Of a stretch of 36,070 bases of DNA, positions 5,158 to 35,105 are shown piece by piece. Source of the stretch: a virus; the UHGV virus genome UHGV-1528002. One strand, written 5' to 3'. The position numbers and the translations under genes are program-made. The notes under the pieces were generated by a model, which was not told where the DNA came from, ran no database searches, and saw nothing but the letters and a program-made list of their open reading frames with translations. The stretch's first letter is position 1. The number at the start of each line of letters is the position of its first letter.

Positions 5158-5234
5158 TTACCGTTGAGGTAATAATTATGCGTATTTGGTTTGATGTCAA
5201 TAGATATGAGTTAAGAAAATTACCTATTAGGTAA
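5158..5234. promoter_or_regulatory. Left operator pair (OL-like): TTACCGTTGAGGTAA (5158-5172) and TTACCTATTAGGTAA (5220-5234)
   Basis: Two copies of the TTACCT-N3-AGGTAA palindrome flanking the leftward early promoter, immediately downstream of the repressor gene. Confidence 0.6.
5172..5200 (-). promoter_or_regulatory. Leftward early promoter (PL-like)
   Basis: Minus strand: TTGACA (plus 5195-5200), 17-bp spacer, AATTAT (plus 5172-5177); the last T of the -10 is the first base of operator 5158-5172. Confidence 0.5.
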
Positions 5235-5246
5235 CAGTATAGGCAA

Positions 5247-5272
5247 TAAAAAAGCCGCCAGAAGGCGGCTTA
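5247..5272 (-). terminator. Rho-independent terminator after the repressor gene
   Basis: Minus strand hairpin AAGCCGCC-ttct-GGCGGCTT followed by TTTTTTATT. Confidence 0.6.
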
Positions 5273-5291
5273 CTTACTGAAAAGTATGATT

Positions 5292-5876
5292 TTATTGTTT
5301 GTTTTTTTCGTTCTGGTTGATGACAAATTCAATGTAACTTTCGATCTTTGCTTTCTCGGTTTCGGGTAACAATGCGTAGCGCGAGCGGTCATAGTTGATG
5401 GTCGCAGGGTCGTGCGGGTGAATCAGTAATTCATAGCCGTGACGCCCGAATGCGGATGCAACATTCTCCAGGGTGGAAATGGAAACGCTGACCTCATTGT
5501 TTAACAGGCGGCTGATTGTCACCTGGGCGACGCCGGATGCGCGGTGAAGTTTTCCCTGAGTTGAAAGGTCGCGGCTTTCGCTCATCCAGCGTTCCAGGTT
5601 GTGAGCCGCCAGCTGACCAATGTCGCTTGGGCCGACAGGCTGAAAACCTTCCTGAGAAAGCGAGCGATCGATATCAAGCCAGTTACGTGGTTTATTGGCG
5701 GCAGCTTCAATTTTTCGCGCAACCTGGTCGCCGATAACCTTCTTGCCAAGAGCCCAGCGGTTTACCAGATTTGCCTGAGTTCCAAGTTTTTCTGCCATCC
5801 GCGTCTGAACACCATTGAATTCACGGTCGATCAAGTCGTTGAGATTTTGCCTGCGGACGTCCTGGATACTTTTCAT
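5292..5876 (-). CDS. Immunity repressor, tandem helix-turn-helix type, no recognisable autocleavage domain
   Basis: Two HTH-like segments (TRMAEKLGTQANLVNRWALGKK and HRASGVAQVTISRLLNNEVSVSISTLENVASAF); divergent from a Cro-like gene and flanked by palindromic operators; no Ala-Gly/Ser-Lys peptidase motif seen. Confidence 0.7.
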   Translation of the reverse strand: MKSIQDVRRQNLNDLIDREFNGVQTRMAEKLGTQANLVNRWALGKKVIGDQVARKIEAAANKPRNWLDIDRSLSQEGFQPVGPSDIGQLAAHNLERWMSESRDLSTQGKLHRASGVAQVTISRLLNNEVSVSISTLENVASAFGRHGYELLIHPHDPATINYDRSRYALLPETEKAKIESYIEFVINQNEKNKQ

Positions 5877-5931
5877 TTTCTGGAAAATCGCCTCATATAT
5901 GAATCAGTAGATGATTCAATTTAAAGCAATA

Positions 5932-5994
5932 TTACCCAACAGGTAAATGCACCTCATGGGTAACTATCCTTGATTTTTGTTACCTTATGGGTGA
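5932..5994. promoter_or_regulatory. Right operator region (OR-like): TTACCCAACAGGTAA (5932-5946) and degenerate TTACCTTATGGGTGA (5980-5994)
   Basis: Palindromes in the 154-bp divergent region between repressor and cro-like genes; TTGATT at 5970-5975 is a -35-like hexamer for the rightward promoter (-10 not cleanly assignable). Confidence 0.55.
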
Positions 5995-6030
5995 ATATTT
6001 ATTATCTGAAATAAATATCAGGCAATAGCT

Positions 6031-6261
6031 ATGAGCGATAACGGACATTTCGATTTCAAAAAGCACTGGCTTGCACTTACTCCGGATGAGCGTGAAGCCT
6101 TCGCACAGGAAGCCGGAACGACGAGTCACTATATCCAGACTCACTTAACAGGTAAGCGCAAAATGCCAGGTAATGTATTGATGGATGGGCTTTTTAAAGC
6201 CTGTAAATCAAGACAATGGCTGCGCTCAAAAGCAGAACTGGCATACTTCTTCTACTCATGA
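6031..6261 (+). CDS. Cro-like regulator, YdaS family
   Basis: 76 aa, divergent from the repressor; LTPDEREAFAQEAGTTSHYIQTHLTGKR resembles YdaS-type Cro-like HTH proteins. Confidence 0.6.
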   Translation: MSDNGHFDFKKHWLALTPDEREAFAQEAGTTSHYIQTHLTGKRKMPGNVLMDGLFKACKSRQWLRSKAELAYFFYS

Positions 6262-6283
6262 TATCCAGCCACAACCCTCTGTA

Positions 6284-6308
6284 GACCGCCATCCGGCGGT
6301 CTTTTCAT
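6284..6308 (+). terminator. Rho-independent terminator after the cro-like gene
   Basis: GACCGCC-atcc-GGCGGTC followed by TTTTCAT. Confidence 0.6.
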
Positions 6309-6316
6309 ATCTATTC

Positions 6317-6331
6317 GTACCTCAAAGGTAA
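6317..6331. promoter_or_regulatory. Operator-like palindrome GTACCTCAAAGGTAA
   Basis: One mismatch to the TTACCT-N3-AGGTAA consensus; lies between the cro terminator and the next gene. Confidence 0.4.
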
Positions 6332-6411
6332 TAAAAAACCAAATATGGTTGATCTTTTTTTTGTGTCAGCACAAAATAACCGTAATCCCAATACTAATAA
6401 CAGGGCTTACC

Positions 6412-6612
6412 ATGGAAATCATTACACGTATTGATGCCGCAAAGCGCGGACTTAAACGCTACTACACCGGAAAACCATGTAAGCACGGACATGACAGTGA
6501 ACGCTGGGTTTACAACGGACACTGTGTTGAGTGCACCATGGAATCAAACCGTCGCATCAGGGCAGAGATTAAGCAGATCATGATTAATTCCTCCCCACAA
6601 CACTCAAGCTGA
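6412..6612 (+). CDS. Small zinc-binding protein (C-x-H...H-C-x2-C), in the lambda cII position
   Basis: 66-aa ORF from ATG 6412 (the track's longer version starts at TTG); Cys/His cluster KPCKHGHDSERWVYNGHCVEC; function unknown. Confidence 0.45.
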   Translation: MEIITRIDAAKRGLKRYYTGKPCKHGHDSERWVYNGHCVECTMESNRRIRAEIKQIMINSSPQHSS

Positions 6613-6627
6613 TAGCGGAGATTAATC

Positions 6628-7443
6628 ATGAGCAGACATGCAACAGATTGGGCCTGGGAGACAGATCCAGGTAGCTCATCATTAAAGCTCATACTGCTCT
6701 CGATGGCTGACAGAGCCGATGAATATAACCTCTGCTACCCCAGCATAGAACGCCTCGTTAAAGACACTTGCCTGAATAAAAAAACCGTGCAGGCCGGGCT
6801 TATATCGCTCATGAAAATGGGGCTTATTTCAGATACCGGAGAGAGAAAGGGAGCGACAAAAAGAGTGCGGGTTTTCTCTCTTAATATAACCAAAAACGGG
6901 AACATTAAAGGCAACCGGGAAGGGGGTAATGAACCCGAAAACGGTAATTTTACCGAAAACGGGAATATACCCAAAAACGGGATGTTGAATGATCCCAAAA
7001 ACGGGATGTTGAATGATCCCAAAAACGGGATCCAGAACCAGTCATATAACCAGTCATTTAACCAAGAGAGGGAGAGCAGGACAAAAAACGGGGATTCTGT
7101 GTCTCATGACCCCGGCGCAAACAACGCCGTGATGAATAACTTTGTTCCTCCTGGTGGGCCAGGGCAATTAGGCAAATTTGTCATGCATGAACAATGGCAA
7201 CCATCAGATGACTTTCTTCGGAAAAGCTCATTGCAGGGGATCTACCTGGACAGTCTGCCAACGGCACAGGAACTTGCAGAGTTCAGAATTTACTGGATGG
7301 CTGAGGGTAAGGCATACCATCAGGCACAGTGGGAGCAGAAGCTGGCAAGGAGGCTGCAGATTAGCAGACAGAAGCAATCAACATTACCTGATAACAACGT
7401 TCCGCACTGGAACAGCCCTGAAGCATGGGAGGATTTCTTGTGA
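6628..7443 (+). CDS. Replication initiator (lambda O-like role) with N-terminal winged-helix domain and an iteron-encoding linker
   Basis: N-terminal HTH-like region (LKLILLSMADRADEYNLCYPSIERLVKDTCLNKKTVQAGLISL); repetitive Asn/Gly linker encoded by iterons; immediately upstream of a lambda P-like gene. Confidence 0.7.
   Translation: MSRHATDWAWETDPGSSSLKLILLSMADRADEYNLCYPSIERLVKDTCLNKKTVQAGLISLMKMGLISDTGERKGATKRVRVFSLNITKNGNIKGNREGGNEPENGNFTENGNIPKNGMLNDPKNGMLNDPKNGIQNQSYNQSFNQERESRTKNGDSVSHDPGANNAVMNNFVPPGGPGQLGKFVMHEQWQPSDDFLRKSSLQGIYLDSLPTAQELAEFRIYWMAEGKAYHQAQWEQKLARRLQISRQKQSTLPDNNVPHWNSPEAWEDFL
6889..7030 (+). repeat. Iteron array (candidate replication origin) inside the initiator gene
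   Basis: At least 6 direct repeats of (A/C)CC(A/G)AAAACGG(G/T)A at 6889, 6934, 6952, 6969, 6994, 7018; the last three are exactly 24 bp apart. Confidence 0.65.
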
Positions 7444-8225
7444 ACAACGTTTTTACCGCGATACAAAACCGTGACGGAGAAGCCCTTTCTCGCATGTCAG
7501 GTTATGAGCATCAGTACACCAACAATGACAACGTGGTGAACATGTCAGCAGAGAGGCTTGTTGATGCCCTTTTCAAACAGCTGAAACAACTGTTTCCGGC
7601 GGCAGTGGTAACCAACCTGAAGACGCCAGAGCAGGAAGTTGCTGCAAAACAGCAGTGGATTGCTGCGTTTGCCGAAGGGGGGATCCGAACCCGTGAACAG
7701 GTTTCTGCTGGTATGCGCCACGCCCGCGCCAGTGAGTCTCCGTTCTGGCCGTCGCCAGGGCAATTCATCAAGTGGTGTAAAGACAGCAAGATGGTTCTTG
7801 GCGTCACCATTGACGATGTGATGGCGGAGTTTCACCGGTACAGCAAGGAAAAAAGTTTATATCCTGGTGGTCCCGAAAGATTCCCGTGGCGACATCCGGT
7901 TATGTACTGGGTCGTATGTGATACCCGCCGTGCAATGTATCAGCGCCAGCTTAGCGAGATTGAGGTTGAGAAACACGCGCGCAGGCTGCTCGATGATTGG
8001 GCGAAAAAGGTAGCTTCCGGACAGCAGATACCCGATCCGGTGATCAGCATACAGGCAAAGCGAGAGCCCATGAGTACACCTCCGGACACAGGGAGAGACG
8101 TTTACCATCCACCAGGGCGAAGTTTCGGGTGCATGCCTAACGCCGCCACCCTTGGGGGAATAACACCGGCGCAGTGGCTGATGGAGGAATACAGGCGGGG
8201 AAAGGCGGCAGGATTTATCAAGTAA
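7425..8225 (+). CDS. Replication protein P-like helicase loader (start may be GTG 7440)
   Basis: Collinear similarity to lambda P (FPAAVVTNL...QQWIAAFAEGGIRTREQVSAGMRHARASESPFWPSPGQFIKWC...LYPGGPERFPW). Confidence 0.8.
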   Translation: MGGFLVNNVFTAIQNRDGEALSRMSGYEHQYTNNDNVVNMSAERLVDALFKQLKQLFPAAVVTNLKTPEQEVAAKQQWIAAFAEGGIRTREQVSAGMRHARASESPFWPSPGQFIKWCKDSKMVLGVTIDDVMAEFHRYSKEKSLYPGGPERFPWRHPVMYWVVCDTRRAMYQRQLSEIEVEKHARRLLDDWAKKVASGQQIPDPVISIQAKREPMSTPPDTGRDVYHPPGRSFGCMPNAATLGGITPAQWLMEEYRRGKAAGFIK

Positions 8226-8261
8226 TACCAGCGCGATAGCGCATTTTTTTACGCCTCAATG

Positions 8262-8276
8262 ATTACCTATCAGGTA
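8262..8276. promoter_or_regulatory. Operator palindrome TTACCTATCAGGTAA
   Basis: Exact consensus copy 48 bp upstream of the operator at 8324. Confidence 0.5.
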
Positions 8277-8295
8277 ACAAAATATTCTAAACTCT

Positions 8296-8338
8296 ATTGA
8301 TTTCGTGTCTTATGTGGTTTTTAATTACCTAAGAGGTA
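8296..8338 (+). promoter_or_regulatory. Promoter with overlapping operator for the DUF1064 gene
   Basis: TTGATT (8296-8301), 17 bp, TTTAAT (8319-8324), then TTACCTAAGAGGTAA (8324-8338) starting at the last T of the -10. Confidence 0.55.
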
Positions 8339-8342
8339 AATC

Positions 8343-8687
8343 ATGAGAAAACAGATACAGGCTCTTGGTCGACTCAAAACAGGCCAGATGAACAAAACAG
8401 AATCTGCGTATTGCCAGCACCTTGAGCTGCGTAAACGTGCAGGAGAAATCGTCTGGTATCGATTTGAGGGTATCAAGCTGCGGTTAGCTGACAACACGTT
8501 CTATACGCCCGATTTTGCTGTGATGCTCGCCACCGGCGAGATGGAACTGCACGAAGTGAAAGGTTTCTGGACCGACGACGCCAGGGTGAAAACCAAAGTC
8601 GCCGCAGATCAGTATCCGTTCCGAATCATCGGGGTAACGGTTAAACCAAAGAAAGCAGGTGGTGGCTGGAACATCGAAGAGTTCTGA
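8343..8687 (+). CDS. DUF1064-family phage protein (putative small nuclease/resolvase-like)
   Basis: 114 aa; pattern recalled as DUF1064 (GEIVWYRFEGIKLRLADNTFYTPDFAV...HEVKGFWTDDARVKTKV). Confidence 0.55.
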   Translation: MRKQIQALGRLKTGQMNKTESAYCQHLELRKRAGEIVWYRFEGIKLRLADNTFYTPDFAVMLATGEMELHEVKGFWTDDARVKTKVAADQYPFRIIGVTVKPKKAGGGWNIEEF

Positions 8688-8748
8688 ATCGACGATCTTT
8701 TTAGTTATCAATGTAATCAATAAGTTATGTGGATAAGCGAGGGTAAAG

Positions 8749-9249
8749 ATGGAAAGTAATATCAAAGGGTTAGTTTCCGCCGGGCATGAGATGGCTTCGG
8801 AACTGAAAGCAGAATGTGGTGCCGTTGATATGCGCAGTGTGGCAAAGCTGATCAGCGATTTGGCAACGCAACTGGAAGTGCAACTGGTGCGTGCTAATGC
8901 GCTGGCCGAAGACCACCAGAAAGCGATTGAGTCAATTAAGCAGGCTGATTCGGCTGTTAAGTTGGCACACGAGAAGTTTTCAGCGCTGGCGGCGGAGAAT
9001 GCTGGGCTGAAACATGCAATGGCTGTAACTCTTGAGCATGTGTCGGTCACGGATGCAGGGCAGGCTGGTGTTGCTGCAATGATTATCAACGATGCCCTAC
9101 ACCACAGCGAAACTCCAGCCACCGATGCTTTTCTGGCTGAAGTACGTGCGCAGGGCGTGGAGATGTTTGCGGAGTGTGCATACACACTTGAACATCATGA
9201 TCACGCAGTAGCTTTTGCCGCCGAGCTACGTGAAGGAGGCAACAAGTGA
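8749..9249 (+). CDS. Hypothetical phage protein (possibly Ea22-like)
   Basis: 166 aa, Ala/Glu-rich helical; GAGGG RBS. Confidence 0.5.
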   Translation: MESNIKGLVSAGHEMASELKAECGAVDMRSVAKLISDLATQLEVQLVRANALAEDHQKAIESIKQADSAVKLAHEKFSALAAENAGLKHAMAVTLEHVSVTDAGQAGVAAMIINDALHHSETPATDAFLAEVRAQGVEMFAECAYTLEHHDHAVAFAAELREGGNK

Positions 9250-9545
9250 CTGTATGTCTTATTGATAAACGTCGACGTGGGCAACAAATACCATCTGTTG
9301 AAATGCCGAATCACACATGGTTTTGCGTACTTGATATCGATGGTATGGATACGTTGATCGACACTCGTCATTACTGCGATACCGCAACAGCTACTCCTGC
9401 AAAAGCAAAGAAAATGGCTGCTCTGATAGAAAACTGGACTCCACCTGATGGTTGGTGCAATGGGAATGATCGAGATTGGCACGAAAAAATGAAGGGCTAT
9501 ATCTGCGATTTTTTACGTAAATGCAACGGATTCAGGGTGATGTGA
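9246..9545 (+). CDS. Hypothetical protein (GTG start overlapping the upstream stop)
   Basis: 99-aa ORF, GTGA overlap; no recognisable domain. Confidence 0.4.
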   Translation: MTVCLIDKRRRGQQIPSVEMPNHTWFCVLDIDGMDTLIDTRHYCDTATATPAKAKKMAALIENWTPPDGWCNGNDRDWHEKMKGYICDFLRKCNGFRVM

Positions 9546-9546
9546 T

Positions 9547-9945
9547 ATGACCAAAATTAACTATCAGGCACTGCGTGAGGCGGCAGAGCGTGCAATTCCG
9601 GCAATGGAACGCCTGTTAATGTTGCCAGTTGATGATGATCTGATAAGCGAGCAGGAACTTAAAGATAGCGGTGTTGATATTGATGCGCTCAATGCCTTCA
9701 AAATTCTGGCCGGACCAGAAAGCGTGCTGGCGCTACTGGATGAACTAGAAGCTAAAAACAAACGCATTACAGAACTGGAAGCGAGGGAAGTTCAATTACC
9801 GACTCGCTACGACCTTCGATATGGGCACCCAATAAATGCTAATAAGCGGCATGTCATGATACCTAAAGAAAATGGCAGTTGGCTTTGCCTGATTGACTTA
9901 GAACACGCACTACGCGTCGCTGGCATTCGCATCAAAGGAGAGTGA
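9547..9945 (+). CDS. Ead/Ea22-like protein
   Basis: N-terminus MTKINYQALREAAERA and PESVLALLDELEAKNKRITELE match the recalled Ea22-like pattern. Confidence 0.5.
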   Translation: MTKINYQALREAAERAIPAMERLLMLPVDDDLISEQELKDSGVDIDALNAFKILAGPESVLALLDELEAKNKRITELEAREVQLPTRYDLRYGHPINANKRHVMIPKENGSWLCLIDLEHALRVAGIRIKGE

Positions 9946-9946
9946 T

Positions 9947-10312
9947 ATGGCACTGACGAAAAAACAACGTGCAGAGCTGCGCATGAAGTTCGGCGGTCGC
10001 TGTGCTTATTGCGGCTGCGAACTTGGCGAAAAGTGGCATGCAGACCATGTAAAACCGGTCATTCGTTTTGCTGGAAATATGCTTCACCAGGAACGTGACG
10101 ATATATCCAACATGGTTCCGGCATGCCACCCATGCAATCTGCACAAGCATTGCAGCAGCCTGGAAGATTATCGGCGAATTATCAGTGATGGTCGTCGTGA
10201 ATTCCTTGCGTCCGGGAAAGGCAAAGCGCTGGTTCGTATGGGATTGGTTGAAATGAAATCTGACCCGATTGTGTTCTGGTTTGAAAAATATCAAGAAGGG
10301 GCTACGGCATGA
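9947..10312 (+). CDS. HNH endonuclease
   Basis: CAYCGC...HADHVKP...ACHPCNLHKH: paired Cys zinc ligands with His-Asp-His catalytic motif. Confidence 0.75.
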   Translation: MALTKKQRAELRMKFGGRCAYCGCELGEKWHADHVKPVIRFAGNMLHQERDDISNMVPACHPCNLHKHCSSLEDYRRIISDGRREFLASGKGKALVRMGLVEMKSDPIVFWFEKYQEGATA

Positions 10313-10698: not shown

Positions 10699-10699
10699 T

Positions 10700-11272: not shown

Positions 11273-11546
11273 CCTGCAACTTGCCGTCAAAGGTGAATAT
11301 TTCGACCAGATGAAGTCAGGCGAGAAAACGGAAGAGTATCGCCTGTGTAATGACTACTGGAATAAGCGAATTATGTTCCGGGAGTATGACCGCCTGATTA
11401 TCACAAAGGGATATCCGAAGCGCGACGATTCCTGCCGCAGAATTGACGTCCCGTATGACGGATATGAAATCAAGACAATCACACATCCGCACTTCGGTGA
11501 TAAACCGGTAAAGGTGTTCGCGATAAAGGTAAATATTGATGGCTAA
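11265..11546 (+). CDS. ASCH/DUF3850-like small protein (GTG start)
   Basis: GTG 11265 behind GGAGG RBS; LQLAVKGEYFDQMKSGEKTEEYR resembles the ASCH-fold N-terminus. Confidence 0.4.
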   Translation: MANLQLAVKGEYFDQMKSGEKTEEYRLCNDYWNKRIMFREYDRLIITKGYPKRDDSCRRIDVPYDGYEIKTITHPHFGDKPVKVFAIKVNIDG

Positions 11547-11877
11547 ATCAGCAGCAGAGCGCAAAGCCGCTCAGAGAGCCAGACAAGCTGCATCTGGTGT
11601 GCGTAAGCTGGAGATTGTGCTTGATGCTCAGGAAATTGAAATGCTGGAGCGTAACTGTGCCACACGTCGCCCCGGGCGTGCGCCTTACGAATTTGGTGAG
11701 TATATAGCGTTACTGATCCGCCAGGATGATGCACGCGTGCGCGGGCGTATAAAATCGATCAGCAGAAAACGTTGCGGTAAGTGCGGCGAGAGAGTTCCTG
11801 TGAATTCATGCCCGTGTAATGGTGACTCGCAATGCTGGGTGACTAAAGGCTGGCATGAAACGAAATTAATAGTGTGA
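11539..11877 (+). CDS. Hypothetical basic protein with C-terminal Cys4 zinc ribbon (candidate regulator)
   Basis: N-terminal basic helical segment (AERKAAQRARQAASGVRKLEIVLDAQEIEMLERN) and CGKCGERVPVNSCPC cluster; last gene before the late region. Confidence 0.45.
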   Translation: MAKSAAERKAAQRARQAASGVRKLEIVLDAQEIEMLERNCATRRPGRAPYEFGEYIALLIRQDDARVRGRIKSISRKRCGKCGERVPVNSCPCNGDSQCWVTKGWHETKLIV

Positions 11878-11885
11878 CATGTCAC
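11873..11885. repeat. Palindrome TGTGACATGTCAC, copy 1
   Basis: Perfect palindrome overlapping the stop codon of the upstream gene; same 13-mer at 14324 and 31845. Confidence 0.7.
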
Positions 11886-11894: not shown

Positions 11895-12107
11895 ATGCCA
11901 AAAATACGCTACGACCTTGAAGATATGAGAGATAACTCAGCAAATTTTCCGAAAGAGGTTAAATTTCTCATGCATAAGTATGGTTGCGCCAGGAGGGATA
12001 TAGTTATCGACAGTCAGCACCCTTGCGGCGAGGATGTAATTTTCATTCGCGGTAAATGGGAAGGGTATCTTGACGAGAGTTTTTACGATGAATTTGATGG
12101 ACTTTGA
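11895..12107 (+). CDS. Hypothetical small protein in an AT-rich moron
   Basis: 70-aa ORF from ATG 11895 in a low-GC segment, preceded by the palindrome and followed by a terminator. Confidence 0.35.
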   Translation: MPKIRYDLEDMRDNSANFPKEVKFLMHKYGCARRDIVIDSQHPCGEDVIFIRGKWEGYLDESFYDEFDGL

Positions 12108-12112
12108 ATACT

Positions 12113-12139
12113 GCCGCCAACTATGGCGGCTTTATTTTG
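12113..12139 (+). terminator. Rho-independent terminator just upstream of the terminase genes
   Basis: GCCGCC-aactat-GGCGGC followed by TTTATTTTG. Confidence 0.6.
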
Positions 12140-12181
12140 CATGGTACTATTACCACAACGGTAACTATTACCAAGGTGGTT

Positions 12182-12778
12182 ATGATGCCTGCTGAACCTA
12201 AAACCTATAAACGCAAATCAACGCAATTTAAGCCACTAACAGCAATGCAGGAGGCTTATTGCCAGTCATACATCAAAACGCCTGAAAACCAGACTCAGGC
12301 AGCGATTAACGCAGGATTCTCCCCAAATACAGCGGCAGTTAAAGCCAGTGTCATGATGCGCGATGAACGCATTCAAAAACGGATTGCCGAGTTGATGGAG
12401 GAGCGCAACAAACGAATGCGCGTCAGTGCTGATTACGTTCTCATGCGCCTGGTGGAGATCGACCAGATGGACGTGATCGACATCCTCAACGACGATGGGA
12501 GCCTTAAACCAATCCGTGAGTGGCCGAAAATCTGGCGCACTACGCTTAGTGGCTTTGATCTGTCATCGACCATCATGAACATGAACGAGGATTCGATAGA
12601 GACAATCCTCAAAAAAATTAAATGGCCTGACAAGGTGAAGAACCTTGAGCTGATTGGTAAGCATGTTGATGTCAACGCGTTCAAAGAACGTCTGGATGTT
12701 AATGTGAATGTGACAATTGCTGATCGCATAGCAGCAGCCAGGAAGCGACTCAAAGAACGTCAGGATGGTAATCAGTGA
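12182..12778 (+). CDS. Terminase small subunit
   Basis: ATG 12182 behind AAGGTGG RBS (the track's longer ORF spans the terminator); AYCQSYIKTPENQTQAAINAGFSPNTAAVKAS matches the small-terminase pattern; overlaps the large subunit gene. Confidence 0.75.
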   Translation: MMPAEPKTYKRKSTQFKPLTAMQEAYCQSYIKTPENQTQAAINAGFSPNTAAVKASVMMRDERIQKRIAELMEERNKRMRVSADYVLMRLVEIDQMDVIDILNDDGSLKPIREWPKIWRTTLSGFDLSSTIMNMNEDSIETILKKIKWPDKVKNLELIGKHVDVNAFKERLDVNVNVTIADRIAAARKRLKERQDGNQ

Positions 12779-14323: not shown

Positions 14324-14336
14324 TGTGACATGTCAC
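14324..14336. repeat. Palindrome TGTGACATGTCAC, copy 2
   Basis: Identical 13-mer; shares the extended flank ...GTCACG-GTGTTA with copy 1. Confidence 0.7.
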
Positions 14337-14959: not shown

Positions 14960-15036
14960 TGGCGTGGCATGCAGGATTCGAACCTGCGACCAACCGCTTA
15001 GAAGGCGGTTGCTCTGTCCAACTGAGCTAATGCCAC
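14960..15036 (-). tRNA. tRNA-Arg, anticodon UCU, CCA encoded
   Basis: Minus strand folds as a cloverleaf: acceptor GTGGCAT/ATGCCAC, D-stem GCTC/GAGC, anticodon stem ACCGC/GCGGT with loop CTTCTAA, T-arm GCAGG-TTCGAATC-CTGC, discriminator G plus CCA. Confidence 0.85.
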
Positions 15037-15358: not shown

Positions 15359-15373
15359 TTACCTCAAAGGTAA
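15359..15373. promoter_or_regulatory. Operator palindrome TTACCTCAAAGGTAA
   Basis: Exact consensus copy in the 427-bp non-coding region between the tRNA and the gp6.7-like gene; minus-strand flank AATTAT-TACCT as at PL. Confidence 0.45.
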
Positions 15374-15463
15374 TAATTCGCGCATTAAATGTCAACTGCC
15401 TACGATAAATAAATCATATGTGGTTAAATTGGTAATAATTTAATTGCGTACGGAGTCATTGAT

Positions 15464-19846: not shown

Positions 19847-20191
19847 GTGATATCGATGTCAGGTGAGAAACCAAGATACCGCGTTCTGCGCCTCTCTCAT
19901 ATCCATAACACACTGTGGCCGGAGGGGGCAGAAATCGAATACGAAGGTGAGCCTGGTAGCGCACTGGAACCTGTTAACGATGCAGCCAGACAGGCAAAAG
20001 CAAAAGTTGCAGGAAAGGTGTCAATGGCAGCAACCAGCACCAAAATCATCAACGATGTGTCAGATGATGGTGAACTGGATAAGCTCCGTGAAGAGTACGA
20101 ATTGCTCTTTAACGAGAAGCCACACCATAACGCCAAAGCTGAAACGCTCCGCGAGAAGATCGCAGATAAGCGTAAAGAACTGGGCGTGTAA
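19847..20191 (+). CDS. Hypothetical protein
   Basis: 114-aa ORF in the late operon, followed by a terminator. Confidence 0.45.
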   Translation: MISMSGEKPRYRVLRLSHIHNTLWPEGAEIEYEGEPGSALEPVNDAARQAKAKVAGKVSMAATSTKIINDVSDDGELDKLREEYELLFNEKPHHNAKAETLREKIADKRKELGV

Positions 20192-24671: not shown

Positions 24672-27292
24672 TGCCTGTTGTTCCTACTACATCCGGCCGC
24701 CAGGTGCAAAGTCGTGGTGTGCAAACCGGTGGTTTTCAGACCTTCGATGTTCCTCAAGCAGGTCAGGTGCTGGCGAATGTCGCAGATCAGTATGCGGTGG
24801 CATATGGTGAAGCCAGGCAGAAAGAGAATGTTGCTATGGTTCAGGAGGCATCCCTTAAACTCAGTCAGACAGGCAGCGATCTGCTGAATAACCCTGAAAC
24901 AGGTTTGCTTAACCTGAAAGGGAAAAATGCTATTGGAAAAGGTCAGGAGTATACGCAGCAGTTTGATGCTCAGGTCGAACAACTGGCTATGTCGCTGCCG
25001 GATGAACAGGCTCGTAATGCTTTCATGCAGCAGGCGCAGCAGCAGCGCATTCAGTTCACTACGCAGGCCGGGAGGTACGAAATAGGACAGGTTCGCCAGT
25101 ATGAGGCGGATATGCAGGATGCGACACTAAAAAACCTATCGATGCAGTTCCGTAACCCGACAATGGCAAACCAGGCAGGATTGAAGGCATATCATAGCAT
25201 CATCGCTTACGGCGAAGCCCACGGCCAGAGTCAGGAAGAGATTGAACAGAACTGGGTTTCGTGGCGCGAGAATGCCGCGAACGGTGCGGCGGAGGCGTGG
25301 TATGTGCCGATGTATCAACAGATGATGGGTCCGAACGGCAAGATTGAGGTAACCGATACACCGAGTGAGGCGCAGTTATTCTCTGCAATAATCTGGCAGG
25401 AGAGTGGCGGAAATCAGTACGGAAAGGACGGAACACCTCTGGTGTCGCCAAAAGGCGCTGTTGGCGTAGCGCAGGTGACGGAAGATACTGGCCCCGAAGC
25501 TGCCCGCCTTGCTGGCGTGCCGTGGGACCGAGATAAATGGTTGAATGACCCGCGCTATAATGCCCGCTTGGGGCAAGCTTATTTCGGCGCGCAGATGAAG
25601 AAATACGACAATAACCCGGTTCTGGCAGTAGCTGCCTATAACGCTGGCCCAGGAAAGGTTGACGGCTGGATTAAACAGATTGGCGATCCGCGCACAGGCG
25701 AAGTCAGTAACGCCCAGTTTGCCGCAGCTATCCCATACGACGAGACGCGCAATTATGTGGCAAAAGTAACTGGCAGTGCTGGAGCTATTCCTGGATCTGC
25801 GACGATGGAAAACCTCATCGCACAGCCATTCTGGAACGCCATGAGTCCGGACAAAAAGTCGCAGATGATGAGCAAGGTTGCTGGCATGTACGACATGCAG
25901 GCTTCAGCCGGTCGCGTTGCGCTACAGAGTCGAATGCAGGACGACCTATCCAAAATTGAGGCCGGTAAGCAGGTGACGCCTATTTCAGCGCACGAATGGG
26001 CCGCCGTTATGCCGCTTCAGGCAGCGCCTGCCGAGCGCCTGCAGATGGAAAAAACCTTCCAGCAATACCAGCAGGCAATGACGCTACAACCTGTTTATCA
26101 GACCATTATGCAGGGCAACGTCCAGCAAGGTACCGCCGCCGTGCAGGCAATGGCACCGCAGGAAAACGACTCTGACTTTAAATACAAAGCAGAGCTTTAT
26201 GCATCGGCAAAGGTCAAGCTTGGGCAGGTACTGAAGGCGCGGGAAGCGGATCCGGGGGCATGGCTGCAACAAAACTCTCCGGTTGTGCAGGCTGCATTCC
26301 AGCAGTACCTGAATGACCCTTCATCTGGTGAATACCTAGTTTCCCGCATACAGTCTGAAAAAGACCGCCTGGGGATAATGAGCAAAAAAGTTTTACCGGA
26401 GTCCATGGTCAACGACGTACTGCAGCGTATTGACAACACGCAGGAATCTAGCGTAAAGGCCATTCAGTCGGTGGCGCAGTCGTTCGGCAAATACTCGGAT
26501 CAGGTGATGCGGCAGGTGCAAAATAAAGCATTCCCAGCTTTAAAGGTTGTAATGTCTACAGAAAACCAACGGGCAGCAGATGCGTTGTGGCAAATACGGA
26601 ATGTACCTACTTCTGATTTGAGATCTGGTTTGGATAAAAACCAGGCAGACAGTGCAGACTCATCGTGGACAGATCAATTTAAAGATTTTTCTTCAACTCT
26701 TATTCCTCAGAGAAATGGTGCTGAAAACTGGACTATTTATAACGAGCAGGGAAAACGCTTGACCTACAACTACATGCAGCGCGGAATGTCGGCGTCTGAT
26801 GCAGCAAAACAGGCGTATCAGGACCTTCTCGGCGAGCAGTACCAGACCAATGGCACTTGGCGGCTACCTAATCGTGCAGGGGTAGATATTCGTGACGTTA
26901 ACGATGGTGCCAATGCGTATCTGAAAAACCTGTCAGCAGATCAGATTATGCCGCTTATTGGTGACCCAAGGCTACCTGATGAGGTCAACCGTGAGCAGAG
27001 TATCTCCCGCATTCGTGATAATGCGCAGTGGGTTACCAACAGCGACGAAACAGGACTTACCCTGATGCTCAACGGGCTGATCGTCAACGGTGCCGACGGC
27101 AACCCGATTACGGTGCCGTTCAACGATCTGGCGAAACTGGGAACAACCAACCGATCAGTATGGAACCGCATTACCAAGTTCATTGATACTCCGGTGAAAT
27201 ATACTCCCGGACAGTCTAAGGAATACAGCGCAGAAAGTCAGCGCGACAACCTGATTAACATTTTCCAGAACGGCCAGCAATCAGGACGATAA
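24671..27292 (+). CDS. Internal virion/ejection protein with lytic transglycosylase domain
   Basis: 873 aa; central IIWQESGGNQ...GAVGVAQV...AVAAYNAGPGKV is the SLT catalytic-domain pattern. Confidence 0.75.
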   Translation: MPVVPTTSGRQVQSRGVQTGGFQTFDVPQAGQVLANVADQYAVAYGEARQKENVAMVQEASLKLSQTGSDLLNNPETGLLNLKGKNAIGKGQEYTQQFDAQVEQLAMSLPDEQARNAFMQQAQQQRIQFTTQAGRYEIGQVRQYEADMQDATLKNLSMQFRNPTMANQAGLKAYHSIIAYGEAHGQSQEEIEQNWVSWRENAANGAAEAWYVPMYQQMMGPNGKIEVTDTPSEAQLFSAIIWQESGGNQYGKDGTPLVSPKGAVGVAQVTEDTGPEAARLAGVPWDRDKWLNDPRYNARLGQAYFGAQMKKYDNNPVLAVAAYNAGPGKVDGWIKQIGDPRTGEVSNAQFAAAIPYDETRNYVAKVTGSAGAIPGSATMENLIAQPFWNAMSPDKKSQMMSKVAGMYDMQASAGRVALQSRMQDDLSKIEAGKQVTPISAHEWAAVMPLQAAPAERLQMEKTFQQYQQAMTLQPVYQTIMQGNVQQGTAAVQAMAPQENDSDFKYKAELYASAKVKLGQVLKAREADPGAWLQQNSPVVQAAFQQYLNDPSSGEYLVSRIQSEKDRLGIMSKKVLPESMVNDVLQRIDNTQESSVKAIQSVAQSFGKYSDQVMRQVQNKAFPALKVVMSTENQRAADALWQIRNVPTSDLRSGLDKNQADSADSSWTDQFKDFSSTLIPQRNGAENWTIYNEQGKRLTYNYMQRGMSASDAAKQAYQDLLGEQYQTNGTWRLPNRAGVDIRDVNDGANAYLKNLSADQIMPLIGDPRLPDEVNREQSISRIRDNAQWVTNSDETGLTLMLNGLIVNGADGNPITVPFNDLAKLGTTNRSVWNRITKFIDTPVKYTPGQSKEYSAESQRDNLINIFQNGQQSGR

Positions 27293-27293
27293 C

Positions 27294-31171: not shown

Positions 31172-31172
31172 T

Positions 31173-31544
31173 ATGAACAGAATTATATTAATGATTATTC
31201 TTATGCTTTTAGTTGTAAAATCTTTTGCAGATACTACCTCACCGTTAATGATTCAGCCTAAAAATGGGGAAACACTGGAGGATTCTAAAAAGCATACAAT
31301 GGAATATTTTGGATGTATAAAAGGGCAGGCCGTAAAATACGCTAAGACAGGAGAAAGTGTTGATTCTATATCCAAAGCTTCGGTTGTGTCATGCGAGTCG
31401 TACATACAAAAGATTGCTGAATCAAATATATACTATTTAAATTCCTCTCAAGACGGTAAGCGGAAATTTATTGGAAGGCTTAAATCAGATGGTGAAAATT
31501 TAGCAACAAAATTTGCTATGGATGAAAAGCTAAAAAATAAATAG
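31173..31544 (+). CDS. Small secreted protein (signal peptide, 2 Cys), AT-rich moron
   Basis: N-terminal hydrophobic signal MNRIILMIILMLLVVKSFA then polar mature region; very AT-rich codon usage; starts 1 nt after the ejection-protein stop. Confidence 0.5.
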   Translation: MNRIILMIILMLLVVKSFADTTSPLMIQPKNGETLEDSKKHTMEYFGCIKGQAVKYAKTGESVDSISKASVVSCESYIQKIAESNIYYLNSSQDGKRKFIGRLKSDGENLATKFAMDEKLKNK

Positions 31545-31552
31545 GTGACTAC

Positions 31553-31849
31553 ATGCAAGCGATAGGATTCATTGTTTATATCGTCGTTGGTCTTTTTCAG
31601 TTGGCAGCAATTATGGCTGGGCTTGAATCATGGTGGGGATTGCACTGGATAATTGCAGCCCCCATTGCTTTCATCGTGAGCTATATTCCATTTGTTGGAG
31701 CGATTGTTGGTATGGTTGGCGCTGTGGATGTATGGCGGTGGGAGTGGTGGCAGGCTGGCCTTCTCTTCTTTGGTGGGATCATCTTTGCTATTGTCTGCGG
31801 TGGAATGTCATCATTTTTCGAATGGCTATCATTCAGAAAAAGAGTGTGA
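31553..31849 (+). CDS. Small integral membrane protein (3 predicted TM helices)
   Basis: 98 aa with three hydrophobic stretches and a basic C-terminus (FRKRV); AGGTGA RBS. Confidence 0.5.
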   Translation: MQAIGFIVYIVVGLFQLAAIMAGLESWWGLHWIIAAPIAFIVSYIPFVGAIVGMVGAVDVWRWEWWQAGLLFFGGIIFAIVCGGMSSFFEWLSFRKRV

Positions 31850-31858
31850 CATGTCACA
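31845..31858. repeat. Palindrome TGTGACATGTCACA, copy 3
   Basis: Perfect 14-bp palindrome overlapping the stop codon of the membrane-protein gene. Confidence 0.7.
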
Positions 31859-31883
31859 GGCCGCTTTCGCGGCCTTGTTTTTT
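31859..31883 (+). terminator. Rho-independent terminator ending the rightward late/accessory operon
   Basis: GGCCGC-tttc-GCGGCC followed by TTGTTTTTT. Confidence 0.65.
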
Positions 31884-32043
31884 AACGAATGCCACCGCCG
31901 CCCGGGCGGGAATCCGCAGAACGCCCACCGCAGCGGGAGCCGTCAGCGGCAGTATCGCTGTCGTGCTGACAACGACCGGCAAAGGCCTGAGTTGAAGCTA
32001 CCAGAGACAACAAAACGAACAGTGCAGCAAATGCTTTTTTCAT
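31882..32043 (-). CDS. Small secreted peptide (53 aa precursor)
   Basis: MKKAFAALFVLLSLVASTQAFA signal peptide with AxA site, about 31-aa mature part with 2 Cys; own TTGACG-16-TATAGA promoter-like region at 32050-32080. Confidence 0.4.
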   Translation of the reverse strand: MKKAFAALFVLLSLVASTQAFAGRCQHDSDTAADGSRCGGRSADSRPGGGGIR

Positions 32044-32112
32044 TGTGAAATTTCCATCTATAAGCCACCTCAATGTGGCGTCAATGAGTGTAGCACTGAC
32101 TTTTGTTTCGTC

Positions 32113-32138
32113 CACAAAAAAGCCCGCGCTGCGGGCTT
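32113..32138 (-). terminator. Rho-independent terminator after the 210-aa gene
   Basis: Minus strand AAGCCCGC-agc-GCGGGCTT followed by TTTTTTG. Confidence 0.65.
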
Positions 32139-32141
32139 CTA

Positions 32142-32774
32142 TTAATGCAGTTTATCTTTGCTTATAACCAGTAGTCTGTGGGTATGCACATCTTTATCAC
32201 TGCCCCAACAGAAATCAGCCCACTGGCTATAGAAATCATCCCATGATGTCATGAAGCTAAGAGGTCTATCTTCTTCAGAGCCATCTGAAACGTATACATT
32301 ATATCCCGGGGTGTTTATAGCCCAAGAAATCATTCTTTCCCAGAATCTTCTCCCATCGATTGTTTGTTGCTCATCAGATACAACGATCGCATATTGCTCT
32401 AGGAAGAACTGAAAAAAAATCTGAGGCAAACCATGAACAGCACGGTCATGAATAACATTAGGCGTACGCCATACCATGATCTGCGTACATGTTCTTTTGG
32501 CTTCGACGATATCTTCCCGAAAGATTAACTTAACCGCATACACCGTTTCTGGAGTATCGCTGGTAGTAATCATTCTGTAATGATCGCCATTACAAGATTT
32601 TACAAGGCGATAACCATAAGGTGTTGTGAATCCCGGAAGAACGAAATCAACCACACCTTTCGCTAAGTAGCTTTCGGTGTGACTAGTGTTCTTCTCAGAC
32701 ATGTTCAGTTTTCTATCGAAATCTGCTTCTGGGATAATGTATGGCATCGCTTTTCTTGTTGTATTTGTTCTCAT
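32142..32774 (-). CDS. Hypothetical protein (210 aa) under an operator-controlled promoter
   Basis: Strong GGGAGGA RBS; AT-rich; no recognised domain; promoter with overlapping operator immediately upstream. Confidence 0.6.
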   Translation of the reverse strand: MRTNTTRKAMPYIIPEADFDRKLNMSEKNTSHTESYLAKGVVDFVLPGFTTPYGYRLVKSCNGDHYRMITTSDTPETVYAVKLIFREDIVEAKRTCTQIMVWRTPNVIHDRAVHGLPQIFFQFFLEQYAIVVSDEQQTIDGRRFWERMISWAINTPGYNVYVSDGSEEDRPLSFMTSWDDFYSQWADFCWGSDKDVHTHRLLVISKDKLH

Positions 32775-32833
32775 TTCGTCCTCCCATGTTTGGCTACAGG
32801 ACGCGTTTTGAAGGGAAGATTAAAAATGCTTTC

Positions 32834-32876
32834 TTACCCTTGAGGTAATAGTACGCTATTCACCCCCAGTCTGCAA
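32834..32876 (-). promoter_or_regulatory. Promoter with overlapping operator for the 210-aa gene
   Basis: Minus strand TTGCAG (plus 32871-32876), 17 bp, TACTAT (plus 32848-32853), then TTACCTCAAGGGTAA (plus 32834-32848) starting at the last T of the -10. Confidence 0.55.
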
Positions 32877-32919
32877 TCTGTACAGAATTATTTAAAGGCA
32901 CGTCCCTGTGCCGCCGCCG

Positions 32920-33606
32920 TCAGAAGAACCCTGCCTTGTCGTTGATGTACTCCGCGTGGGTCTGGATATCACGCAGGCATTTACTCACACCGACGATGTA
33001 GCAGAACATGGTGGTCAGTTCCGCCGCCGCGCCCGATACGTCATGCCCGTCTTCCTGTAACTGGTTCAGCAAATTCATCAGCAGTGAGTTCTCCGTCAGG
33101 CCGAGAACACCAGACGGCGAATGAATCAGGCTGCGGTAGCCGGGCTTCAGCGGGGCACTGTAGGTTTTGTTCTCTATCTTCATCGCCTGCATCACTGCTG
33201 ATGCTGTGGCGTTTGCAACCTGGTCGGCAACCATCTTTATGCGTTCTTCCTGCGGGAGCGAGTTTTTAATGTAACTTCCGGTGCGGCGGATCTGAGGAAG
33301 AACCTCACCTGTAACCCATTTACGAAAGCGGTAGGGGATAGTGCCTGGTGTCACCGCATCGCGGCAGCGGAGGATCAGTGTGTAGAGGCCTGACTCGCTG
33401 ATAATATTGGTTTCGCCTTGACGACCTAAGTTAAATTTAGCCCTTTCATCATCATCAAGAGATTTGATTGACATGGTGGGGTTTGTCAGTTGAAGAGCTT
33501 TAATAACGTCTTTGGCAACAAACCAAGGATTTCCATCAATAACAATGGCTCGAATGGTTGCTTCTGATTCAAAATGAAAAACAGATGGGGTTACGTTAGC
33601 AGTCAT
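32920..33606 (-). CDS. Antirepressor, BRO-N domain with KilAC-like C-terminal domain
   Basis: N-terminal FHFESEATIRAIVIDGNPWFVAKDVIKALQL...IISESGLYTLILRC is the BRO-N pattern; ATG 33606 behind AAGGTGA RBS; C-terminal 75 aa are paralogous to the small gene at 34757-35014. Confidence 0.8.
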   Translation of the reverse strand: MTANVTPSVFHFESEATIRAIVIDGNPWFVAKDVIKALQLTNPTMSIKSLDDDERAKFNLGRQGETNIISESGLYTLILRCRDAVTPGTIPYRFRKWVTGEVLPQIRRTGSYIKNSLPQEERIKMVADQVANATASAVMQAMKIENKTYSAPLKPGYRSLIHSPSGVLGLTENSLLMNLLNQLQEDGHDVSGAAAELTTMFCYIVGVSKCLRDIQTHAEYINDKAGFF

Positions 33607-33762
33607 GGCAATCACCTTTTAGTATGGTTAATCACCACCTGAGGTGCAAATCTCGTTGGTGGTGAGACGTACAGGGTTTGCACTACCGGCTAAAAGGACC
33701 CGGCGCACCTTTCGGTGCCCCTGCACGTCCCACCATAATTCTGGCATGACTGTGCTATACGC

Positions 33763-33784
33763 ATAAAAAAACCACGTCTGGCGT
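33763..33784 (-). terminator. Terminator-like hairpin inside the antirepressor 5' leader
   Basis: Minus strand CCACG-ccaga-CGTGG followed by TTTTTTT, about 160 nt upstream of the antirepressor start. Confidence 0.45.
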
Positions 33785-33877
33785 GGTATGCGCCTTTTAG
33801 TAATCCGGGGTGCAAATCCCGGCACTGGATTTTGCCAGTGCTCAATTACTATGGCACAAGAGGAGTGCGATGTAAAT

Positions 33878-33921
33878 TTACCGCAAAGGTAATGATAAAC
33901 GCTGATAAATATAAAAATCAA
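33878..33921 (-). promoter_or_regulatory. Leftward promoter with overlapping operator driving the antirepressor leader
   Basis: Minus strand TTGATT (plus 33916-33921), 18 bp, TATCAT (plus 33892-33897), then TTACCTTTGCGGTAA (plus 33878-33892) starting at the last T of the -10. Confidence 0.5.
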
Positions 33922-33970
33922 CCGTATTTGGTTGATTGCGTTTAACGCTTGATCACCTGAAAGCAAGATA

Positions 33971-33985
33971 TTACCTTTAAGGTAA
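33971..33985. promoter_or_regulatory. Operator palindrome TTACCTTTAAGGTAA
   Basis: Exact consensus copy 21 bp upstream of the ATG of the membrane zinc-ribbon gene. Confidence 0.5.
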
Positions 33986-34005
33986 TGTTATTGTGAGGAA
34001 AAGCA

Positions 34006-34734
34006 ATGGAAGTTTTCTGGATAGTTGTTGGTGTGGTTGCGGTGATTATTTACGTTATCAACCAGAACAAGACTAAGATCTCTGATCGTACGGTCGTTAA
34101 TCATAACAAAACGATAAAGACCGAAGATGGGGAGATAACGATTAATCGTACACAGGTGATAGAACACACCTCTACTCAGTTTCAAAAAACTGGAGGTAAT
34201 GCGCCTAATATTTCCGCACCTCCTGCTTATGATAGTGCGGTAATCCAGACATATTATAAACAGCAGGAGTTAGCAAAAGAGAGGCAACTGATTCAGCCAA
34301 AGCCGTTTACAGCTGAGCTTCCACCTGGAGTGTCAACGCGTCCGGCATATCATGGAAGATTCCCTGGTGATGACATATCGTCTCAGTCATCTAAAAAAGC
34401 ACCTCAGGCAGTATCAGAGCCAGCAAGAATACCTTCTGTATCGCCGCCAAAAGAAGAATCAGCTAACAGAGTTTCAAGTGGTAGCAAGCAGTGCTTGCGA
34501 TGCAGAATAAACCTTCCATATGAAAAATTCAGGAAATCGTCAAAAAATCCAGATGGATTGACTAAGTGGTGTGCAAGGTGTCTCGATGGCCCAAAGAATA
34601 CACGCCATATGAAGTGGTGCCCAATTTGTAATGTCCGCAGAAAACGAACCAGCTTTTACCCTAATAATCAAAATGCGGACGGCTTAATGGCATGGTGCAA
34701 AACGTGCTGGGATGAGCACAAAGCGAAACGATAG
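34006..34734 (+). CDS. Membrane-anchored protein with tandem C-terminal zinc ribbons
   Basis: N-terminal TM helix (VFWIVVGVVAVIIYVI), low-complexity linker, two repeats of CxxC...NPDGL..WCxxC; GAGGAAAA RBS. Confidence 0.55.
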   Translation: MEVFWIVVGVVAVIIYVINQNKTKISDRTVVNHNKTIKTEDGEITINRTQVIEHTSTQFQKTGGNAPNISAPPAYDSAVIQTYYKQQELAKERQLIQPKPFTAELPPGVSTRPAYHGRFPGDDISSQSSKKAPQAVSEPARIPSVSPPKEESANRVSSGSKQCLRCRINLPYEKFRKSSKNPDGLTKWCARCLDGPKNTRHMKWCPICNVRRKRTSFYPNNQNADGLMAWCKTCWDEHKAKR

Positions 34735-34756
34735 GCCGCTCTTGCGGCCTTTAAAT

Positions 34757-35014
34757 TTACCGGGTTTGTTTTCGTAATTGTTCGGCACAATAGTCGAGAT
34801 GTGTTTGCAGATCCTGCATAGACATCTGTGAGCTGGTGACGTAGTTAATCAGTGCAGTCAGTTCGGCAAGTGGGCCATCGACATTAAATCCATCCTTATC
34901 GAGATCCCGGAGTAATTTCATCAAGTGCGATCCCTCCACCAGTGATCTGACGCCTCCCGGCGTGTGAATCCTTTCGGTAAATCCGTCTTCCAGTGGATAG
35001 TGATACTGCTGCAT
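34757..35014 (-). CDS. Small KilAC-like protein (stand-alone antirepressor C-domain paralog), candidate SOS-induced antirepressor
   Basis: ATG 35014 behind GGAGAAG RBS (the track's longer ORF begins at TTG 35032); about 40% identity to the C-terminus of the BRO-N antirepressor (e.g. IHTPGGV / IHSPSGV, AELT, DLQTH / DIQTH); LexA box 22 bp upstream. Confidence 0.55.
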   Translation of the reverse strand: MQQYHYPLEDGFTERIHTPGGVRSLVEGSHLMKLLRDLDKDGFNVDGPLAELTALINYVTSSQMSMQDLQTHLDYCAEQLRKQTR

Positions 35015-35033
35015 CTTATCTTCTCCATGCAAT

Positions 35034-35053
35034 AACTGTATAAATATACAGTA
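35034..35053. promoter_or_regulatory. LexA (SOS) box
   Basis: AACTGTATAAATATACAGTA: CTGT-N8-ACAG with AT-rich spacer, 18 of 20 matches to TACTGTATATATATACAGTA. Confidence 0.75.
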
Positions 35054-35090
35054 TCAAATAATTTGTTTGCTATCCAGCACGTTTTGCAAA

Positions 35091-35105
35091 TTACCTGAAA
35101 GGTAA
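35091..35105. promoter_or_regulatory. Operator palindrome TTACCTGAAAGGTAA
   Basis: Exact consensus copy in the divergent region between the small KilAC-like gene and the tail-fibre gene. Confidence 0.5.

Follow-up and report, generated by a model that had tools for sequence, protein, structure and literature searches.

Which protein reads a 15-base-pair (bp) palindrome that recurs between the genes of the virus genome UHGV-1528002, and what might it control there? To answer this, we analysed the whole stretch of 36,070 nucleotides (hereafter, the window), which is a prophage of the phiV10/ε15-like podoviruses (genus Uetakevirus) that begins at int and stops inside the tailspike gene. Over the shared parts, the window is 97-99% identical to phiV10, PAS61, phiv142-3, ZX5 and others, and its immunity region was found in 541 of 5,426 complete E. 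coli genomes (~10%). A preliminary description had interpreted the palindrome as an immunity operator extended into a prophage-wide regulon. Sequence comparisons now make it quite probable that the palindromes are operators of the prophage's own repressor, Rep, situated at the start of nearly every transcription unit. Regulation of this kind is already known, from the sites predicted in ε15 and from the characterised Rep/Ant pair of the Salmonella phage SPC32H, and the prophage itself is a close relative of sequenced phages; operator-tagged mobile cassettes and two extra conserved palindromes might be the only parts that are new.

The motif was clearly enriched in the window when compared to shuffled sequences. 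The full palindrome TTACCTNNNAGGTAA (TTACCT-N3-AGGTAA, 15 bp) occurs in six exact copies (5220, 8263, 8325, 15359, 33971 and 35091) vs. 0.00 expected, while at up to two mismatches there are 16 copies vs. 0.56 expected, a number reached in none of the 100 shuffles. For the core, TTACC-N5-GGTAA, we counted 11 perfect copies vs. 0.035 expected and 15 copies at up to one mismatch vs. 0.88. All 12 copies listed in the preliminary description were recovered by the scan, including five with one mismatch (5158, 5932, 6317, 32834 and 33878) and one with two (5980), though two positions given there as 8262 and 8324 were each one base off and should read 8263 and 8325. The total of 12 was too low: there are at least 14 sites, those at 136-150 (before int) and 12150-12164 (before terS) having been missed, besides a degenerate OR2 at 5949-5963 and a weak site at 12168. 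With our own gene calls, all 14 good sites showed zero overlap with genes, non-coding DNA making up 8.2% of the window (chance probability about 6e-16), which bears out the statement that the copies lie outside confident coding regions. Nor was the motif as frequent in coding sequence, an outcome that the same description had named as contradicting its proposal: the only matches inside open reading frames were those at 6141 and 24910, with two mismatches each, and they were taken for chance matches, their number fitting the shuffle expectation. The idea that the AGGTAA half-site is a mere Shine-Dalgarno sequence was rejected as well, a start codon following it only at 8325. Text searches of the literature with the motif strings turned up nothing relevant.

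For comparison, we used seven genomes: the window, phiV10, Tyrion, ε15, SPC32H, BUCT711 and BUCT554. In a de novo count of palindromes, TTACC-N5-GGTAA ranked first in all seven, with 8-11 perfect copies in each, and it was also the top palindrome, at syntenic positions, in nine more distant contigs encoding Rep. Scanning with a position weight matrix gave 12-16 sites per genome, falling into about ten positional classes: before int; at the leftward promoter PL (two or three sites); in the right operator region OR (three); after the cro terminator; as a pair before the DUF1064/resolvase operon; before terS; before the structural operon; at ant/tailspike; before the lysis genes (outside the window); and at accessory genes. 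The preliminary description held that the extra copies silence accessory genes, and accessory genes do carry operators, but most of the extra sites precede core operons (int, terS, structural, tailspike, lysis). The placement of the sites is remarkably constant. The spacing within the operator pairs is 62 bp in 13 of the 14 PL and resolvase pairs; the distance to the start of the gp3-like gene is 105 bp in six of the seven genomes and 106 bp in BUCT711; that to the tailspike start is 119-121 bp in the five genomes measured (window, phiV10, Tyrion, ε15 and SPC32H); and that to the int start is 57 bp in the three genomes measured, the site at 136 having an imperfect GGTAT arm at equal distance from int in all seven. 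Alignments of the intergenic regions showed the operators conserved amid diverged flanks.

Several of the sites lie on promoter elements. At PL (TTGACA-17-AATTAT, 10/12), the final T of the −10 opens the operator OL1, while OL2 is found 62 bp upstream. The promoter of the resolvase operon, Pres (TTGATT-17-TTTAAT), is built on the same plan, and there, as in the upstream promoter of the gene for a Bro-N antirepressor (TTGATT-18-TATCAT), the −10 and the palindrome have one T in common, the last of the former and the first of the latter. The promoter of a 210-residue accessory gene (TTGCAG-17-TACTAT) fits less well, so that the geometry described earlier as identical at four promoters holds for PL, Pres and the Bro-N ant upstream promoter and more weakly for the fourth. 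OR is tripartite, a third site, OR2, having to be added to the two operators assigned before to the repressor/cro region: OR1 lies in the spacer of the rightward promoter PR, by an invariant TTGATT, and OR3 on a promoter reading leftward into rep (TTTACC-18-TAAATT). A leftward TTGACA-17 promoter, also conserved in ε15 and aimed at the tRNA-Arg/accessory genes, has its −10 (TACCTT) inside site 15359. Just three of these promoters, namely PL, PR and the upstream one of ant, were confirmed by a consensus scan; the rest are weaker.

In SPC32H, Rep is reportedly not cleaved but inactivated by the antirepressor Ant, the ant gene being repressed by LexA, as Kim and Ryu are said to have described in 2013 (J Virol). 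The Rep of the window matches SPC32H Rep (PDB 5D50) with E = 4e-42 over residues 1-190. Its Pfam matches are HTH_3 and the YdaS-like helix-turn-helix (HTH) only; no Pfam match to Peptidase_S24 was obtained, whereas the cI of the Pseudomonas phage PseuP_224 has one. Across the phages of the genus, Rep is 42-78% identical, the N-terminal domain (53-90%) more so than the C-terminal one (39-76%), and residues N36-W41 are invariant in an alignment with five orthologues. According to the passages on SPC32H in two papers (PMC9638917, PMC9986798) that cite Kim et al. 2016 (PNAS), Rep is a tetramer that binds palindromic DNA, with each DNA-binding N-terminal pair drawn from different dimers; the C-terminal domain serves both tetramerisation and Ant binding, and Ant disassembles Rep. 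The small Ant of the window is 88% identical to that of SPC32H although Rep is only 42% identical, and its gene has the same position as in SPC32H, between the structural operon and the tailspike gene. The near-consensus LexA box AACTGTATAAATATACAGTA, a predicted LexA site, is the sole match in the window and is conserved in the seven genomes.

Phage PseuP_224 helps to tell which protein recognises the half-sites. In its cI, the S24 peptidase is joined to an N-terminal domain of the Rep type (39% identity, E = 1e-12), while its Cro showed no similarity to the Cro-like protein of the window. The cI/cro intergenic region (~2420-2475) contains ATTACC-CGTA-GGTAAT and TTACC-TGTT-GGTAA, in which the spacer (N4) is one base shorter. 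The half-sites thus accompany a Rep-type N-terminus together with an unrelated Cro, which links the half-site to the N-terminal domain of Rep. While the preliminary description considered the binder not deducible from sequence, the PseuP_224 case, the ε15 record and the homology to SPC32H indicate that it can be inferred to be the N-terminal HTH domain of Rep, PseuP_224 being the one case that separates the candidates. When IMG/VR was scanned with the alignment of Rep, all matches were 100%-identical copies, and a word-indexed homologue search with the 73-residue N-terminal domain of Rep returned fragments only.

Further evidence came from the leader of the Bro-N antirepressor gene. Rfam detected both C4 (77.8 bits; gathering score 45) and isrK (67.4 bits; gathering score 50) at full length, downstream of operator 33878. 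A conserved TG-extended promoter, TTTACA-17-CATAGT (33876-33848), would start at the 5′ end of isrK, and the operator abuts its −35. The resulting isrK-C4-ant leader resembles the isrK-anrP arrangement of Gifsy-1 (PMC7380047). The C-terminus of the Bro-N antirepressor is paralogous to the small Ant (42% identity, E = 1e-15), so the prophage appears to possess two antirepressors under different control. The isrK-C4 module is present in 182 phage records. In the phages compared, the Rep operator stood on the isrK-C4-ant module in three of three Rep-type phages vs. none of four non-Rep phages (PhiR12_2, YYZ-2008, APSE-8 and YpM44), in which the aligned upstream regions showed unrelated sequence. 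The operator is thus matched to the resident repressor. Taken together, the homology of Rep, the annotation of ε15, the conservation in seven genomes and the presence of the operator on isrK-C4-ant only with Rep support the proposal of an immunity operator extended to a prophage-wide regulon.

The λ-like phage LLS, in which an unrelated CI/S24 protein serves as the repressor, contains an 84% homologue of the 210-residue accessory gene. The LLS homologue keeps the promoter/operator arrangement, TACTAT followed by TACC-N5-GGTAA (LLS 42053-42067), which is the sole perfect site in 42.9 kilobases; promoter and operator can thus travel with the accessory gene (moron). We tentatively propose, with considerable doubt, that Rep operators could be portable regulatory tags, gained by cassettes entering a Rep-type phage and kept on leaving it, that a resident Rep could thus control genes of unrelated phages in trans, and that the operators could form a two-factor genome-wide code with a second palindrome, AACCATATRTGGTT, which would be paired with them at most promoters, at fixed and helically phased distances, and be read by another factor. 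If so, Rep of a resident phiV10-like prophage could control genes of unrelated co-resident or infecting phages.

Several observations weigh against Rep as the reader and repressor at all these sites. Two of the four promoters described as having an abutting −10 fail the consensus scan. The structural, tailspike and lysis units have a single operator about 40-55 bp upstream of a conserved promoter-like block, a position that gives no sign of simple occlusion. One operator is present in LLS, which lacks Rep, and a site can thus persist without its binder. The last two observations, along with the two DNA-binding units of the Rep tetramer, would suit a different picture, in which the working operators are limited to those of OL, OR and the 62-bp pair, and the single dispersed copies are anchors for long-range Rep bridging or weak or relic sites. 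We regard this as unlikely: the fixed distances to the start codons (gp3, tailspike, int) and the conservation amid diverged flanks argue for a local function, and site 15359 overlaps the −10 of the conserved leftward TTGACA-17 promoter.

The remaining points concern the identity of the binder. Throughout the genus, Rep is invariably inherited together with both the Cro-like and the gp40-like gene, only PseuP_224 separating them, and the nine distant Rep-encoding contigs also carry both. The operator core is invariant, even where Rep is only 42% identical, and it is the same in the nine distant relatives with different recognition-helix residues; the covariation test of specificity failed, being uninformative because the operator core never changes. 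With the Cro-like gene divergent from rep, transcribed from PR, assigned to a PHROG annotated as a transcriptional repressor and co-inherited with the motif in every Rep-type phage examined, its product might be the main binder, or might share the sites with Rep as λ CI and Cro do, using the dispersed copies in lytic growth. We find this improbable, however, as PseuP_224 has matching half-sites and a Rep-type N-terminus but an unrelated Cro, SPC32H Rep is reported to bind palindromic DNA, and the ε15 record assigns the sites to the repressor. That the repeats are boundary sequences favouring the recombination of phage modules, or else serve a host factor or as promoter elements, is hardly credible: copies do lie at module boundaries beside variable accessory genes, and the 210-residue moron did move to LLS with its copy, but the perfect dyad with an A/T-rich centre, the 62-bp pairing, the placement on −10, +1 or spacer and the clustering round rep fit a dimer-binding operator, and the motif is absent from the isrK module in non-Rep phages, so that recombination would be a by-product.

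Rep as the repressor acting at operators throughout the prophage thus remains the preferred reading, and we infer that Rep would bind and repress at each of the sites and loop the 62-bp pairs. Most probably, pairs of the N-terminal HTH domains of a non-cleavable, two-domain Rep read the two TTACC/GGTAA half-sites, and in the lysogen, Rep would be bound to the operator with which practically each transcription unit begins. The operator covers −10/+1 at PL, at the promoter of the resolvase operon and at the 210-residue gene, where it would act by occlusion, while at PR and the int promoter, Pint, it would act from within the spacer. At PL and the resolvase promoter, one Rep tetramer, with its two DNA-binding pairs, could hold both of the operators spaced by 62 bp, thereby enclosing the promoter in a small loop. 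OR would work in a λ-like manner, OR1 acting on PR and OR3 on the leftward promoter for rep, which resembles the λ maintenance promoter (PRM-like), and single operators would guard the int, terS, structural and tailspike units as well as the lysis unit outside the window. Induction would proceed without Rep cleavage: DNA damage would remove LexA from the small ant gene, and Ant would take Rep off the DNA. The release of Rep should derepress the Bro-N antirepressor behind the isrK and C4 RNAs, which should reinforce or lock in the switch. A type of prophage common in E. coli would then be kept silent at each transcription unit and not by a single switch, with a LexA-controlled antirepressor as the trigger. 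This should help in the annotation of phiV10-like prophages, in whose records operator features are lacking, and in the prediction of accessory genes that stay silent in a lysogen.

The closest known system is the Rep/Ant pair of SPC32H (PDB 5D50, 5D4Z). Both Reps have two domains without S24, with 53% identity in the N-terminal and 39% in the C-terminal domain; the SPC32H genome has TTACC-N5-GGTAA at matching positions, and its Ant is in the matching place with a LexA box. The phage of the window differs in adding a Rep-controlled Bro-N antirepressor with an isrK/C4 leader and operators on accessory genes. In addition, its OR2 is degenerate in comparison with SPC32H and ε15, and it has two operators at PL vs. 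three in those phages. The ε15 RefSeq record (NC_004775.2) contains seven features labelled "protein_bind, repressor, lysogeny" with the sequences ATTACC-N5-GGTAAT: before terS (12-27), before gp3, at gp19/tailspike (19895-19911), three at PL and one before the resolvase gene. They are the counterparts of sites 12150, 15359, 35091, 5158/5220 and 8263 of the window. The ε15 annotation omits the OR, pre-int, pre-lysis and post-cro sites and the second site of the resolvase pair, whereas our scan finds all of them. In the E. coli group, unlike in ε15, T/A is favoured at positions 6/10 and the flanking A/T is missing. Operator features are absent from the phiV10 record, and operators are not defined in the ZX5 paper.

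Among more distant systems, P1 C1 is a monomeric repressor of another family that binds asymmetric 17-bp operators at many transcription units, and the P1 immI region has the order c4-icd-ant. The preliminary description judged the prophage to be more like P1 C1 than λ CI. As far as the logic goes, this is right, and the C4 RNA strengthens it: many dispersed operators are present (at least 14 sites in about ten positional classes), and the antirepressor operon is led by a C4 RNA behind a repressor operator. It does not extend to a family relationship, since the sites are perfect dyads of 15 bp, Rep has its matches in HTH_3 and 5D50, and induction would go via a LexA-controlled Ant. With λ CI/Cro, the prophage shares the divergent PR and PRM-like promoters, the tripartite OR and the OL operators; it differs in a Rep without the S24 autocleavage domain, in nine good sites outside OL and OR, and in 62-bp pairs that bracket promoters. 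Repressor sites spread over the whole genome, tens of them, also silence many units in the lysogens of the mycobacteriophage L5 and the Streptomyces phage φC31, whose repressors are unrelated. The stoperators of L5 gp71 are asymmetric, orientation-dependent and located inside transcribed regions, and the inverted repeats of φC31 are palindromic and located at promoters. The sites of the window differ from those of L5 in being palindromic and in lying at promoters and after terminators.

Table 1. Predicted operators of the window and the genes, leader RNAs and LexA box discussed with them.
Feature	Position	Strand	Remarks
Operator before int, TTACCTTAAAGGTAT	136-150		57 bp from int start; overlaps spacer and a TATACT −10-like hexamer (by eye)
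OL1	5158-5172		Overlaps −10/+1 of leftward PL (−35 5200-5195, −10 5177-5172)
OL2	5220-5234		62 bp from OL1; upstream of PL −35; adjoins rep terminator
rep, 194-residue repressor	5292-5876	-	N-terminal HTH and C-terminal HTH_3-like domain
OR3	5932-5946		Overlaps −35/spacer of leftward PRM-like promoter (−35 5947-5942 TTTACC, −10 5923-5918 TAAATT)
OR2, GCACCTCATGGGTAA	5949-5963		Degenerate in window; perfect in ε15/SPC32H; 17 bp from OR3
OR1	5980-5994		Spacer of rightward PR; invariant −35 TTGATT 5970-5975
Cro-like gene (phrog_35)	6031-6261	+	Transcribed from PR
Post-cro operator	6317-6331		Directly after cro-like terminator; on minus strand, TTTTAT and second palindrome precede it
Upstream operator, DUF1064/resolvase-operon promoter	8263-8277		62-bp pair with 8325 in 7/7 genomes
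Downstream operator, DUF1064/resolvase-operon promoter	8325-8339		Over −10/+1; holds Shine-Dalgarno of gene at 8343
Operator before terS	12150-12164		Between early-right terminator (12113-12130) and terS; weaker neighbour site 12168
Operator before structural operon	15359-15373		Between tRNA-Arg/accessory genes and structural operon
Operator of 210-residue accessory gene promoter	32834-32848		Geometry TACTAT followed by TACC
Bro-N antirepressor gene	32920-33615	-	C-terminus paralogous to small Ant (42% identity)
Bro-N ant leader RNAs	33655-33841	-	isrK 33765-33841; C4 antisense RNA 33655-33740 (Rfam)
Operator of isrK-C4-ant (Bro-N) unit	33878-33892		+1 of TTGATT-18-TATCAT; abuts −35 of isrK promoter (33876-33848)
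Operator before 242-residue membrane zinc-ribbon gene	33971-33985		TTGATC-17-TACCTT by eye
Small antirepressor Ant gene, 91 residues	34757-35032	-	88% identical to SPC32H Ant
LexA (SOS) box AACTGTATAAATATACAGTA	35034-35053		At small ant promoter
Operator between small ant and tailspike gene	35091-35105		119-121 bp before tailspike start in five genomes measured

Two further palindromes were noticed. The second palindrome, (A)ACCATAT(A/G)TGGT(T), gave 16 matches at up to two mismatches vs. 5 expected. In the window, it lies at 6339-6350, 8308-8319, 15414-15425, 33922-33933 and 35134-35145, with a degenerate copy near 5183; in phiV10, a copy is found at 24738. It was present in all seven genomes, at fixed centre-to-centre distances to the Rep operator of 19.5, ~41 or 52.5 bp, i.e., roughly in helical phase. 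Its copies occupy the −35/spacer region of PL (in Tyrion and BUCT554), of the resolvase promoter and of the lysis promoter (AACCATATATGGTT-TAT-TGTGTATAAT). The ε15 record has no annotation of it, and when a DnaA box, a σ54 site and a site for the integration host factor were considered by eye, none fitted. On the minus strand of 6317-6350, shortly after the cro-like gene, which has a terminator that is T-rich on the plus strand only, the second palindrome is followed by TTTTAT and then by the operator, all facing leftward; this arrangement could be an establishment promoter of the PRE kind reading back into rep.

The other is a 12-bp perfect palindrome, GTGACATGTCAC, found at the 3′ ends of three operons (11874-11885, 14325-14336 and 31846-31857): at the stop codon of a gp49-like regulator, after terL and after the last structural gene, beside terminators. 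It is kept at corresponding places in the genomes examined (in ε15, at 2142, 19517 and 39612). No mention of either of the two strings was met in the searchable literature, where the text search was made for one of them. A single-sequence AlphaFold model of the gp49-like regulator had a predicted local distance difference test (pLDDT) score of 47.

As for neighbouring genes, a tRNA-Arg (TCT) gene (14960-15036, minus strand) lies in the accessory region between terL and the structural operon, and it is present in SPC32H too. The 66-residue protein encoded after cro (6412-6612) and the C-terminus of the 242-residue membrane protein (34006-34734) have common zinc-ribbon repeats, which resemble the N-terminus of endonuclease VII (phrog_1035 matches). 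Finally, in the region 12104-12185 of the window (41-120 in phiV10), the long terS reading frame, annotated from 41 in phiV10, takes in a terminator and the Rep operator. Judging from the comparison with ε15, the true terS start is probably the ATG at 12183 of the window, and the annotated phiV10 terS start is probably over-extended.

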